Of a stretch of 64,000 nucleotides of DNA, positions 21,053 through 22,427 are shown piece after piece. The notes under the pieces are model-generated. The model did no database searches and was not told the origin of the DNA. It saw nothing but the letters and a program-made list of their open reading frames with translations. This DNA is from Bacillales bacterium (GTDB taxonomy: Bacteria; Bacillota_I; Bacilli_A; RF39; UBA660). The DNA lies in the NCBI GenBank assembly GCA_016290885.1, contig JAEEVN010000002.1:2489-66488 (forward strand). The letters are read 5' to 3'. Both the position numbers and the translations under genes were made by a program. Numbering within the stretch: the first letter of the stretch is position 1; the number at the start of each line of letters is the position of its first letter.

Positions 21053-21084
21053 AACAATGTTTCACGTGAAACATTGTTTTTTAT
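21053..21084. promoter_or_regulatory. parS site 1 (ParB centromere-like site) inside a 26-bp perfect palindrome plus T-run; likely also the gyrA terminator
   Basis: AACAATGTTTCACGTGAAACATTGTT (21053-21078) followed by TTTT. The core at 21058-21073 is TGTTTCACGTGAAACA, an exact parS consensus. Confidence 0.85.
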
Positions 21085-21137
21085 TGATTATAAAATATTA
21101 GAATGGTAGAATATAACTACGTTTAAGGAGGTTTGTT

Positions 21138-21806
21138 ATGAGTGCAATAAATGAAATACATATAAAAGGCGAGGTATATAGTGATAAAACATATATGCAA
21201 ATTGAAGAAATTAACCATACAGGAACTTATTTATTTCAAATAGGGGATGAGTTTCGTCAACATCGCTTTTATTATTTAAACAATACTTTTATTCATGGGG
21301 ACGTAGATTTTTTAGGAATGTCGCATGACGGCCCTATATACTGGGAGATTATGCCAGATTCATTTATTGCAGTATACAACGAGCTTGTTGAGGATAGTAA
21401 AGATGACAAAGAATACATTGGTAGAATTTCACCAAATGTAGATAAAGCTATAAGAGAGCATGAAGAATTCTTAGAAGAAGAACTTTCTACAGCATTAAGA
21501 GAAAACCTTGAATTAAAAAGAGTACCAAAAAACAAACAAATGGAATTTGGAATAGAATTGTTAGATACTGCACCTACAATGGACGCAAAGGAAGAGAAAA
21601 TAGAAGAATTACACTTTGAAAATAAAATACTAAGATTATTAGGAGAGAAATTTACTTTAGAACACACACCAGAAGATGAAAGACTAGCAATTATAGATGA
21701 AACATTGAAAAAATCATCTTCAAAAGACGCAAAAGAAATAATGATCATTAGATTAATGCGCCAAAACAGAAGCTTAAGAATCAAAAATGATCAAAACAAT
21801 GAATAA
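21138..21806 (+). CDS. Hypothetical protein (222 aa)
   Basis: AAGGAGG SD 7 nt upstream. Bracketed by parS site 1 and the NBS/parS pair. No recognisable motif; the C-terminal half is charged and probably helical. Confidence 0.7.
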   Translation: MSAINEIHIKGEVYSDKTYMQIEEINHTGTYLFQIGDEFRQHRFYYLNNTFIHGDVDFLGMSHDGPIYWEIMPDSFIAVYNELVEDSKDDKEYIGRISPNVDKAIREHEEFLEEELSTALRENLELKRVPKNKQMEFGIELLDTAPTMDAKEEKIEELHFENKILRLLGEKFTLEHTPEDERLAIIDETLKKSSSKDAKEIMIIRLMRQNRSLRIKNDQNNE

Positions 21807-21830
21807 AAATATTTCCCGGGAAATATTTTT
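21805..21830. promoter_or_regulatory. Noc-binding-site (NBS) palindrome 1; terminator-like, overlaps the stop codon of the 222-aa ORF
   Basis: AAAAATATTTCCCGGGAAATATTTTT is a 26-bp perfect palindrome. The core at 21810-21825 is TATTTCCCGGGAAATA, an exact B. subtilis NBS. Confidence 0.75.
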
Positions 21831-21836
21831 TGATAT

Positions 21837-21854
21837 ATGTTTCACGTGAAACAT
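21837..21854. promoter_or_regulatory. parS site 2
   Basis: ATGTTTCACGTGAAACAT. The core at 21838-21853 is an exact parS consensus, 12 bp from the NBS core. Confidence 0.85.
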
Positions 21855-21863
21855 TATTATAAA

Positions 21864-21892
21864 TTGACTTTTTATTTAAAATAAAGTATATT
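21864..21892 (+). promoter_or_regulatory. Sigma-A type promoter of the SRP RNA gene
   Basis: TTGACT (21864-21869), 17-nt spacer, TATATT (21887-21892). The RNA helix begins about 6-7 nt downstream. Confidence 0.65.
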
Positions 21893-21897
21893 AATTA

Positions 21898-21971
21898 TGC
21901 ACAACGGAGAACTTGGAATCAGGTCAGGATAGAAATATAGCAGCCTTAACATTTAATTTCCGTGTGTGCAT
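21898..21971 (+). ncRNA. ffs: Signal recognition particle RNA (small 4.5S-type, scRNA/ffs)
   Basis: A roughly 74-nt hairpin with 5' TGCACAACGG pairing to 3' CCGTGTGTGCA. Domain IV signature GGTCAGG-ATA-GAAA-TAT-AGCAGCC (compare E. coli GGUCAGGUCCGGAAGGAAGCAGCC). T8 run follows. Neighbours tadA and dnaX as in Bacillus. Confidence 0.85.
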
Positions 21972-21988
21972 TTTTTTTGGAGTAAAAT

Positions 21989-22393
21989 ATGAACGAAAGA
22001 TTAATTATAGATGAATTAAATAAACTTACGGATAAAGCTATTAGAAAAAATGAGGTTCCGGTAGCGTGTATTATAGTTAAAGATGATAAAATAATAGCAA
22101 AAGCTTATAATAGAACAGTAAAAACTAATAATATATTAGATCATGCAGAAATAATCGCAATAAAAAAAGCTTCAAAAAAAATACATAATTGGAGATTAAA
22201 TGATTGCAAATTATATGTATCATTAGAACCTTGTGATATGTGCAAGGAAGTAATAAAGAAATCTAGAATATCCGAAGTTATATATTATTCAAAGCAAAAT
22301 AATAATAAAACAGAAAAAAATATAGAATATAAATATATAGAAAATAAAGAAATATCAGATAAACTAACAACATTTTTTAAAAATATAAGATAA
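21989..22393 (+). CDS. tadA: tRNA-specific adenosine deaminase (CDA-fold)
   Basis: 134 aa. Zinc motifs HAEIIAI and PCDMCKEVI. Position next to ffs/dnaX fits. Confidence 0.85.
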   Translation: MNERLIIDELNKLTDKAIRKNEVPVACIIVKDDKIIAKAYNRTVKTNNILDHAEIIAIKKASKKIHNWRLNDCKLYVSLEPCDMCKEVIKKSRISEVIYYSKQNNNKTEKNIEYKYIENKEISDKLTTFFKNIR

Positions 22394-22397
22394 TCCA

Positions 22398-22427
22398 CCA
22401 ATGTTTCACGTGAAACATTGGTTATTT
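22398..22427. promoter_or_regulatory. parS site 3 inside a 24-bp perfect palindrome plus T-run; likely also the tadA terminator
   Basis: CCAATGTTTCACGTGAAACATTGG (22398-22421) followed by TTATTTTTT. The core at 22402-22417 is an exact parS consensus. Confidence 0.85.

Follow-up and report, generated by a model that had tools for sequence, protein, structure and literature searches.

A parS cluster between gyrA and dnaX as the probable centromere of a Bacillales chromosome, with palindromes that may double as transcription terminators

Why should a short interval between two core genes hold three perfect copies of a chromosome partition site, two of them directly behind the stop codons of genes? 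The question is raised by a 64,000-nucleotide stretch of DNA from an uncultured Bacillales bacterium (the window; contig JAEEVN010000002.1 of assembly GCA_016290885.1), in which an original prediction picked out three exact parS sites within 1.4 kb and read two of them as parts of terminator hairpins. The Spo0J (ParB)–parS system of B. subtilis was reportedly described by Lin and Grossman in 1998. B. subtilis has about ten parS sites, distributed across an extensive origin domain, most of them intragenic and one within spo0J.

All three predicted copies are present. The 16-mer TGTTTCACGTGAAACA occurs at 21058–21073 (parS1), 21838–21853 (parS2) and 22402–22417 (parS3), each time within the 18-mer ATGTTTCACGTGAAACAT (21057–21074, 21837–21854 and 22401–22418). 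These are exact matches to the 16-bp palindromic parS consensus TGTTNCACGTGAAACA, of which shuffled versions of the window are expected to hold 0.05 even when up to two mismatches are allowed. The sites are all intergenic and not in tandem, with spacings of 780 and 564 bp. The cluster is bordered on the left by gyrA (18570–21047, with its TAA stop at 21045–21047) and on the right by dnaX (22588–24231). Between these, as had been described, are an open reading frame of 222 aa (ORF222, 21138–21806), the SRP RNA gene ffs (21893–21978) and the tRNA adenosine deaminase gene tadA (21989–22393, stop TAA at 22391–22393), all five genes being on the forward strand. The oriC region and dnaA occupy 11641–13552 of the same strand, including the rnpA–dnaA gap at the GC-skew switch, with which dnaA itself (12164–13552) coincides. 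The parS sites lie to the right of dnaA/oriC, 8.9–10.3 kb from the dnaA start, close to the predicted 9–10 kb.

In a scan of the whole assembly (1.11 Mb in 52 contigs, about 95% complete), these three are the only parS sites with at most one mismatch; two further sites with two mismatches, on another contig, are at about chance level. From base composition, about 3e-4 chance occurrences of the 16-mer are expected in the genome. The 18-mer, which might have turned out to be a dispersed repeat, is confined to the origin-proximal locus. A further site could be hidden, since the assembly is incomplete and fragmented and parS arrays break the assemblies of relatives; in G014, G016 and G017 the arrays are located at the ends of contigs.

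The cluster is found far beyond this species. Among genomes of the family and order (48 genera sampled), 56 of 61 contain parS, with 1–10 copies per genome that form one tight cluster wherever positions are listed. In all of the 20-plus loci inspected, this cluster occupies the gyrA–dnaX interval, around the ffs–tadA pair (tadA is immediately 3' of ffs in 15 of 15 relatives scanned), and four further families of the class share this location. The core is either invariant or the known C/G variant, and the number and spacing of the sites differ; some relatives have head-to-tail arrays with periods of 35–37, 42–43, 61, 66 or 74 bp. Such conservation of the 16-bp core amid variable flanks, copy number and spacing argues for selection on the core, as had been proposed. 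Judged by sequence comparison, the gyrA–dnaX parS cluster is a conserved chromosomal centromere of the ordinary kind.

The lack of a ParB homologue able to bind parS had been named as a point that would speak against this reading. A parS-type ParB is encoded, however, at 40570–41466 of another contig (C4). The protein scores 209 bits against the parB_part family, and its best match in the PDB is Spo0J of B. subtilis (6sdk, 227 bits). Residues 173, 179, 184 and 201 are R, M, K and G, of which R173 and G201 are the parS-specific residues (Jalal 2020, PMC7383237), and the CTP-binding GERR motif is present. A gene for a ParA-family ATPase adjoins parB, and SMC is encoded as well (979 bits against a cut-off of 567 bits). 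The parAB pair is thus on a different contig from the parS sites, and there is no parS within parB; in relatives where the two loci share a contig, they are separated by 73–88 kb in three cases and by about 20 kb in a fourth. Apart from this ParB and a Noc-like paralogue considered below, a third ParB-like gene is found on contig C9, where its neighbours are a repressor-like gene and genes for sortase/pilin.

Two of the three parS sites are embedded in longer structures. parS1 (21053–21085, forward strand) is a perfect palindrome of 26 bp (21053–21078; 28 bp with one G-U pair included) that begins 6 nt past the gyrA stop and is followed by TTTTATT. parS3 (22397–22431, forward strand) begins 4 nt past the tadA stop with a palindrome at 22397–22422, followed by TATTTTTT. 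The T-runs behind both stops had been noted correctly, as had the 26 bp of the first palindrome, but the third copy also measures 26 bp, not 24. parS2 (21837–21854, no strand assigned) is a bare 18-mer that lacks both T-run and stem extension; a promoter-like site for ffs (21864–21892, forward strand, TTGACT-17-TATATT) has its −35 hexamer 10 nt downstream of it. On the transcribed strand, parS1 and parS3, but not parS2, show a stable stem-loop with a U-tract shortly after a stop. A terminator scan flags the same two sites and yields 5 terminator-like matches in 2.5 kb, against 0.4 in shuffled sequences. The parS1 RNA hairpin has a predicted dG of −15.4 kcal/mol and a folding z of −4.4; the z for parS3 is −4.2. 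The parS stems are AT-rich except for four central G-C pairs. With Firmicutes intrinsic (Rho-independent) terminators they share a G-C-core stem, a 4-nt loop, a T-run and a position 4–6 nt past the stop; the difference is that here the top of the stem is an invariant predicted protein-binding site, and only its base is free to covary.

It may be that the locus is a centromere and nothing else, and that the long palindromes and T-runs are by-products: templated (quasipalindrome) mutation would lengthen a perfect inverted repeat of 16–18 bp, T-runs are common in intergenic DNA of 26% GC, and termination would be left to other signals, to the NBS hairpins described below or to Rho. The relatives supply evidence on both sides. 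Stems extended by at least 4 pairs and followed by at least 5/8 T are found at 11 of 22 stop-proximal parS (those within 15 nt of a gyrA or tadA stop) and at 6 of 60 others, i.e., 50% versus 10%, a fivefold difference (Fisher p = 2.4e-4, the relatives not being phylogenetically independent). The flank pairs covary, with a score of 0.331 that 0 of 500 shuffles attain (0.129 in shuffles) and that falls to 0.06–0.11 when the partners are slid, and each pair has undergone 5–9 double changes, which suggests that the stem is kept by compensatory changes, albeit among related, non-independent sequences. The post-gyrA parS of three relatives (G001, G003 and G011) have different yet complementary flanks, plus a T-run. 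Behind the tadA stop, a parS whose flanks covary is present in 13 of 13 genomes of the genus, in most cases together with a T-run. G004 has as its gyrA terminator a parS-like hairpin with CTTATG in place of the central CACGTG, so that the parS centre is lost while stem and T-run are retained. Other GC-containing terminators are scarce nearby, and the 20 kb that follow contain roughly one convincing example. On the other hand, parS that are not stop-proximal are likewise enriched in extensions of 4 pairs or more (12 of 49, where permutation predicts 3.2). Several of these lack T-runs, and extended parS without T-runs are found in G024, G019 and G016. Part of the extension may thus reflect a process at the DNA level, such as quasipalindrome correction, rather than selection for termination. 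G-U and A-C mismatches in the flanks (9 versus 6) do not favour the RNA strand, a comparison that is uninformative because the right flank is T-rich anyway. On balance, a centromere with accidental hairpins seems unlikely, and comparison between genomes supports parS1 and parS3 as candidate transcription terminators of gyrA and tadA as well. Literature searches for parS combined with terminators returned nothing relevant (a paper on plasmid RA3 merely places parS after an operon), and no paper was found that describes a chromosomal parS as a terminator.

The parS reading of the original prediction is supported, but it overlooked the genome-wide uniqueness of the cluster, its presence throughout the family and two exact Noc-binding sites (NBS) interleaved with the parS. 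The Noc–NBS system of B. subtilis is a nucleoid occlusion system, reportedly described by Wu in 2009. The NBS 16-mer TATTTCCCGGGAAATA occurs exactly twice in the genome, at 21810–21825 and 22450–22465. NBS1 (21805–21831, forward strand) forms a 26-bp palindrome followed by T that overlaps the ORF222 stop, making it a candidate terminator for that gene; NBS2 (22445–22471, forward strand) has an identical palindrome, also followed by T, and is a possible back-up terminator before dnaX. All five palindromes recur in a conspecific strain of 99.5% identity, which varies too little to be informative. Relatives contain 1–5 NBS per genome, and in every genome of the genus with positions checked, all exact NBS are within the parS cluster.

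The likely reader of these sites is a Noc-like ParB paralogue encoded at 2162–3118 of the window, on the reverse strand. Its best PDB matches are Noc structures, and it has the GERR CTP-binding motif. At the positions of Noc Q173, K179, K184 and R201 it reads Q, K, N and R, a match at three of four that includes the specificity-switching Q and R and one permissive K. The exact 16-bp NBS, Q173, K179, R201 and GERR are shared with Noc–NBS of B. subtilis (Jalal 2020, PMC7383237; Jalal 2021, PMC8429893), from which the present pair differs in several respects. Noc has dozens of NBS dispersed over the chromosome, whereas a genome-wide search for dispersed sites found only the two inside the parS cluster. 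Position 184 is N instead of K. The N-terminal amphipathic membrane-targeting helix is absent from the paralogue: the alignment starts at Noc residue 26–27, with three open codons upstream.

ORF222, between parS1 and parS2, is a species-specific orphan. It is preceded by a ribosome binding site (AAGGAGG, 21125–21131) and a promoter-like site (21084–21112). It has no match in Pfam or PHROG, and no relative was found in the genome contigs searched; the sole protein homologue is a 98% identical copy from a conspecific assembly. In the nearest relative, G011, the same slot is occupied by an unrelated ORF of 180 aa. A single-sequence AF2 model reached a pLDDT of 46, too poor for a fold search.

The gyrA–dnaX interval is probably the chromosome's single centromere, with stop-proximal parS that double as terminators and with NBS that are presumably read by the Noc-like paralogue. 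The system is of a known kind, in a compact, dual-use, two-protein form. ParB, whose gene adjoins that of ParA on another contig, would recognize the three parS palindromes, switch to a clamp gated by CTP and spread along the DNA near the origin; ParA would then move the ParB complex, which would load SMC. The parS behind the gyrA and tadA stops appear from the comparison to have grown, through complementary flanks particular to each copy and a T-run, into RNA terminator hairpins. The two NBS among them share this hairpin-plus-T design and would presumably be bound by the paralogue, which has no membrane anchor.

A bolder version of this explanation is possible, if doubtful. The sole centromere in the family would then be a composite, two-protein site that combines ParB–parS and anchor-less Noc–NBS within less than 2 kb, its palindromes would be the terminators of gyrA, ORF222 and tadA, and clamp loading would be coupled to termination, the Noc-like protein being a centromere factor and not a division inhibitor. 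Transcribing RNA polymerase would halt where the clamps load, without ever passing through, and the AT-rich terminators might be reinforced by ParB or Noc-like protein bound there as a roadblock. The Noc-like protein could then be an intermediate between ParB and the membrane-tethering Noc of the Bacillales.

Other functions for the palindromes have to be weighed against these. Bound ParB and Noc-like protein might mainly regulate ffs, tadA and dnaX, in the manner of KorB or of P. aeruginosa ParB at its parS3/parS4, with segregation a secondary role. The closeness of parS2 to the ffs −35 hexamer would fit this, as would the presence of parS (34–47 nt) or NBS (60–71 nt) upstream of the ffs start in 12 of 12 genomes of the genus compared, and in P. 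aeruginosa, according to a preprint (10.1101/151340), promoters beside parS are repressed by ParB. Nevertheless, ParA, ParB and SMC are here ordinary chromosomal proteins, and both the 1–10 copies and the tandem arrays of the relatives are what one expects of centromeres, not of operators. Moreover, segregation would have no other target, since these are the only parS sites in the genome, and a mainly regulatory role is improbable. Still less credible, to the point of being nearly discounted, is that the match to parS is a coincidence and that the copies constitute a generic repeat of terminator or REP-like type, or else a partition site belonging to an integrated mobile element. The copies do occur at gene ends and fold well, and there is the third ParB-like gene with its repressor-like and sortase/pilin neighbours. 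However, there are three copies only, at a single core-gene locus near which no mobile-element genes were found; the exact 16-mer has been kept at the gyrA–dnaX position in 48 genera, and several relatives have tandem arrays without terminator features. The dispersed-repeat, mobile-element and chance readings were rejected on the uniqueness of the sites in the genome, the 0.05 matches expected and this conservation.

A parS cluster near oriC is by itself textbook biology. The probable centromere described here has the same 16-bp consensus as B. subtilis, a ParB closest to Spo0J, ParA, SMC and origin-proximal sites, and differs from it in having three intergenic parS within 1.4 kb as its sole cluster, with parAB elsewhere and no parS in parB. 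The sopC centromere of the F plasmid consists of twelve 43-bp repeats, to which the head-to-tail parS arrays of the relatives are alike; the locus in the window is chromosomal, has the chromosomal parS sequence and consists of three sites that are not tandem. In Corynebacterium glutamicum, ten parS are found within 35 kb, nine of them intergenic (PMC7083940), and clustered chromosomal parS are also present in Caulobacter, Myxococcus, Streptomyces and P. aeruginosa (reviewed in PMC7333895). Clusters of the C. glutamicum type are likewise made up of redundant, origin-proximal and mostly intergenic sites of the B. subtilis type, in species-dependent numbers, but the present one is far tighter (1.4 kb, with tandem periods of 35–74 bp in relatives), is fused to gene-end hairpins and is interleaved with the predicted sites of a second ParB-family protein.

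Why the number of parS varies and why the sites cluster are open questions (PMC7333895), for which the family offers a natural series: one locus and one consensus, in 1–10 copies, with isolated sites at one extreme and arrays of 35–74 bp period at the other. From the covarying gene-end stems it would seem that one site can serve both for protein loading and as a terminator, which is relevant to the coexistence of transcription with ParB loading. Adjacent parS and NBS, together with an anchor-less Noc, provide a handle on the origin of Noc from ParB, a transition that PMC7383237 approached by mutagenesis alone. Tight pairs of parS are widespread, occurring, among the matches listed, in Streptomyces, Collinsella, Lachnospiraceae and others.

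The window carries three exact copies of the 18-mer ATGTTTCACGTGAAACAT, at 21057-21074 (parS1), 21837-21854 (parS2) and 22401-22418 (parS3), just where the original prediction had placed them. Dinucleotide shuffles of the window yield 0.05 matches to TGTTNCACGTGAAACA with up to two mismatches allowed, and an exact 16-mer is expected about 3e-4 times per whole genome, as calculated from base composition (26.4% GC). The genes and sites follow in the order gyrA, parS1, ORF222 (a 222-aa orphan ORF), parS2, ffs (the SRP RNA gene, 53.7 bits), tadA, parS3, dnaX, ybaB, recR and holB. 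The GC skew switches sign at the start of dnaA (12164), which puts the sites 8.9-10.3 kb from the origin, on its right-hand side, in line with the 9-10 kb predicted. Had the 18-mer been a generic dispersed repeat, copies should occur elsewhere. However, throughout the assembly (1,110,388 bp in 52 contigs, 95% complete), these three are the only parS sites with at most one mismatch, and the two sites with two mismatches, both on contig C45, are about the number expected by chance (the window shuffle rate scaled to genome size). The 18-mer is thus confined to the origin-proximal locus, and the gyrA-dnaX cluster is very probably a centromere.

The cluster is a stable feature among relatives. parS sites are few per genome and tightly grouped in 41 related genomes, and in each genome of the genus and family whose locus was fetched they lie between gyrA and dnaX, around ffs-tadA, a placement that holds as GyrA identity drops from 95% to 62%. 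In genomes seemingly without parS, this locus carries the symmetric variant TGTTCCACGTGGAACA instead, and outside the family four genomes of the class, belonging to other families, have parS beside gyrA or tadA-dnaX. A broader, evenly drawn set of 61 genomes from 48 genera (at least 90% complete) includes 56 with parS, at 1-10 sites each and in a single cluster in every genome with listed positions. Clustering by itself is not unusual, since tight pairs of perfect parS are widespread across phyla among the matches listed.

Copy number and spacing vary freely among relatives, some of which have head-to-tail parS arrays with periods of 35-37 bp (G004 and G010; 37 in G010, L025), 42-43 bp (G014, L029/L030), 61 bp (G091:C26:19444-20069), 66 bp (G017, L165, an NBS+parS unit, NBS being the Noc-binding site) and 74 bp (G015, L031). 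The identical units in some arrays point to recent tandem duplication. Several arrays end at contig edges, where assemblies break within them. The core remains constant while flanks, number and spacing differ, and an invariant core amid changing surroundings is the mark left by selection on the 16-mer, as had been argued from the window's three copies.

Three ParB-family genes are encoded in the genome. The parS-type ParB that the original prediction required is found on contig C4 (40570-41466), directly behind a ParA-family ATPase gene, and its top solved-structure relative is B. subtilis Spo0J (6sdk, 227 bits). Specificity for parS versus NBS is set by positions 173, 179, 184 and 201, of which R173 and G201 are parS-specific, while 179 and 184 are free among parS binders (Jalal et al., PMC7383237); the C4 protein has R-M-K-G. 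Its orthologue is present in all ten relatives tested (56-93% identity), and SMC is also encoded (979 bits). Where parB and the parS cluster share a contig, they are 73-88 kb apart (G013, G008, G024) or 20 kb apart (G023). The second gene (2162-3118, minus strand) adjoins rsmG. Its product matches the Noc structures 7ng0, 7nfu and 7ol9 best and has specificity residues Q-K-N-R versus Q-K-K-R in Noc. It aligns from about residue 26 of Noc, with just three more open codons upstream, and thus lacks the membrane-targeting helix. The third gene (C9:16297-17178; L008 7298-8179) encodes an N-terminal domain only. With its neighbors, genes for an RstR-like repressor, an LPXTG pilin-like protein and a sortase, it may belong to a mobile or secretion island, unrelated to the parS cluster.

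The customary gene block is rsmG-noc-soj-spo0J. Here it is split (window 2162-4257; C4:40570-42232), leaving the Noc-like gene alone beside rsmG near oriC and parA-parB on a separate contig; in G023 they adjoin the noc-like gene. In the origin region, two minus-strand ORFs at 3194-3544 (116 aa) and 9260-9649 (129 aa) have no NCBIfam match, and the former has no Pfam match either.

Interleaved with the parS sites, and overlooked in the original prediction, are two copies of the palindrome AAAAATATTTCCCGGGAAATATTTTT, NBS1 (21805-21830) and NBS2 (22445-22470), which include the exact 16-bp Noc-binding site TATTTCCCGGGAAATA. With at most one mismatch allowed, these are the only two in the genome, so that a single 1.4-kb locus holds every genomic parS (three) and NBS (two), in the order parS1, ORF222, NBS1, parS2, ffs, tadA, parS3, NBS2. 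Of 25 family genomes, 22 have exact NBSs (1-5 each), as does one of 16 genomes sampled outside the family. Within the genus each NBS with a checked position falls inside the parS cluster, and in G023 and G017 NBS alternates with parS inside one repeat unit. Compared with nucleoid occlusion of the B. subtilis type, the NBS half misses two defining features, the membrane helix and dispersed sites, and on sequence grounds it would be Noc-like in DNA recognition only. The NBS1 and NBS2 palindromes match over 27 nt, and the likeness continues into ATATATGT (21805-21839 versus 22445-22479), downstream of which parS2 follows NBS1 and nothing follows NBS2. The two may represent a duplicated NBS-parS module in which the second parS has decayed.

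parS1 is set in a perfect 26-bp palindrome (21053-21078) that begins 6 nt past the gyrA stop, with TTTTATT behind it, as predicted. The palindrome and T-run predicted behind tadA are also present (22397-22422, beginning 4 nt past the stop and followed by TATTTTTT), but the parS3 palindrome is 26 bp long, not 24 bp. parS2 is the 18-mer alone, without extension. A terminator consensus scan marks parS1 and parS3 (5 matches per 2.5 kb versus 0.4 in shuffles), and about one convincing GC-containing terminator is found in the next 20 kb. The folded RNA reaches -15.4 kcal/mol (z -4.4) for parS1 and -22.1 kcal/mol (z -4.2) for parS3 and NBS2 jointly.

Each of the 13 genomes of the genus has a parS behind the tadA stop; the TAA touches the 16-mer in six, and in five of these it pairs with TTA opposite. 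Sites beginning at most 15 nt from a gyrA or tadA stop (21 loci) have at least four extra Watson-Crick pairs plus at least 5/8 T in 11 of 22 cases, versus 6 of 60 other sites (Fisher p = 2.4e-4). Their flanks are species-specific yet complementary (CCAA/TTGG, ATCAA/TTGAT, CAGTAA/TTACTG, GGTAA/TTACC). When 18 stop-proximal sites are aligned, double changes number 5, 9 and 8 in the three flank pairs that vary, with a covariation score of 0.331 versus 0.129 shuffled (0/500 reach 0.331) and 0.06-0.11 for slid partners. The post-gyrA hairpin of G004 (L023), ACTATGTTTCTTATGAAACATAGTTTTTT, retains the TGTTTC/GAAACA stem, extension and T-run around a CTTATG center, with CACGTG lost. It would thus have ceased to be a parS and remained a terminator, which suggests that the two are interconvertible. 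Other species have an extended NBS palindrome in this position instead.

Extension could also reflect a tendency of perfect palindromes to grow at the DNA level. It is found in 14 of 22 stop-proximal sites (1.9 expected) but shows a weaker enrichment at sites distant from stop codons as well (12 of 49, 3.2 expected), and some extended sites lack a T-run. Such growth probably contributes. Use of parS1 and parS3 as both centromere and terminator is nonetheless reasonably likely from these comparisons; a literature search found no publication on chromosomal parS doubling as terminators.

Starting from the observed sites, proteins, conservation and covariation, a model can be built on established ParB-parS biology (PMC7333895, PMC7053999). 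ParB dimers would nucleate at the three parS sites, bind CTP, close and slide, forming a partition complex that ParA would move and that would load SMC. The gyrA and tadA transcripts would terminate in hairpins topped by parS sequence, and the ORF222 transcript and tadA read-through at the NBS hairpins, so that RNA polymerase would seldom traverse the loading sites. These terminators are AT-rich, and bound protein may reinforce them; the Noc-like protein might work at the centromere instead of tethering to the membrane.

The parS sequence, ParB, ParA and SMC are all of the B. subtilis type. C. glutamicum has ten parS within 35 kb, nine of them intergenic (PMC7083940), likewise a single intergenic cluster, although the one described here is >20x more compact. 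The tandem arrays of relatives resemble plasmid centromeres. Overall, the locus appears to be a compact, two-protein and putatively dual-use variant of a known system, whose moderate interest comes chiefly from the series of relatives compared and from the interleaved NBSs.

In all 12 genus genomes compared, a parS (34-47 nt) or NBS (60-71 nt) directly precedes the start of the SRP RNA gene (window 21837-21892; homologous in L021-L027 and L161-L164), and parS2 here abuts the -35 hexamer of the ffs promoter. A site so placed might influence ffs transcription, or else ParB sliding might be limited by the busy promoter. Within the genus, three species have two or three extra parS (TGTTCCACGTGGAACA) within the dnaX coding region (L161 (G005) 6172, 6226, 6274; L163 (G009) 6391, 6484; L164 (G012) 2446, 2548). 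The three in G005 share one codon phase and would encode V-P-R-G-T, the sites thus doubling as the coding sequence of a protein repeat. Between the post-gyrA palindrome and the promoter of ffs, some species have ORFs of their own that are unrelated to one another, of 222 aa in the window (21138-21806), 180 aa in the closest relative (L026 4015-4557) and 338 aa in G012 (L164, 3486-4502 after reversal to gyrA -> dnaX forward), and none in most species. ORF222 and its conspecific copy are 5 nucleotides apart and share ~98% protein identity, so that these differences mostly change the protein.
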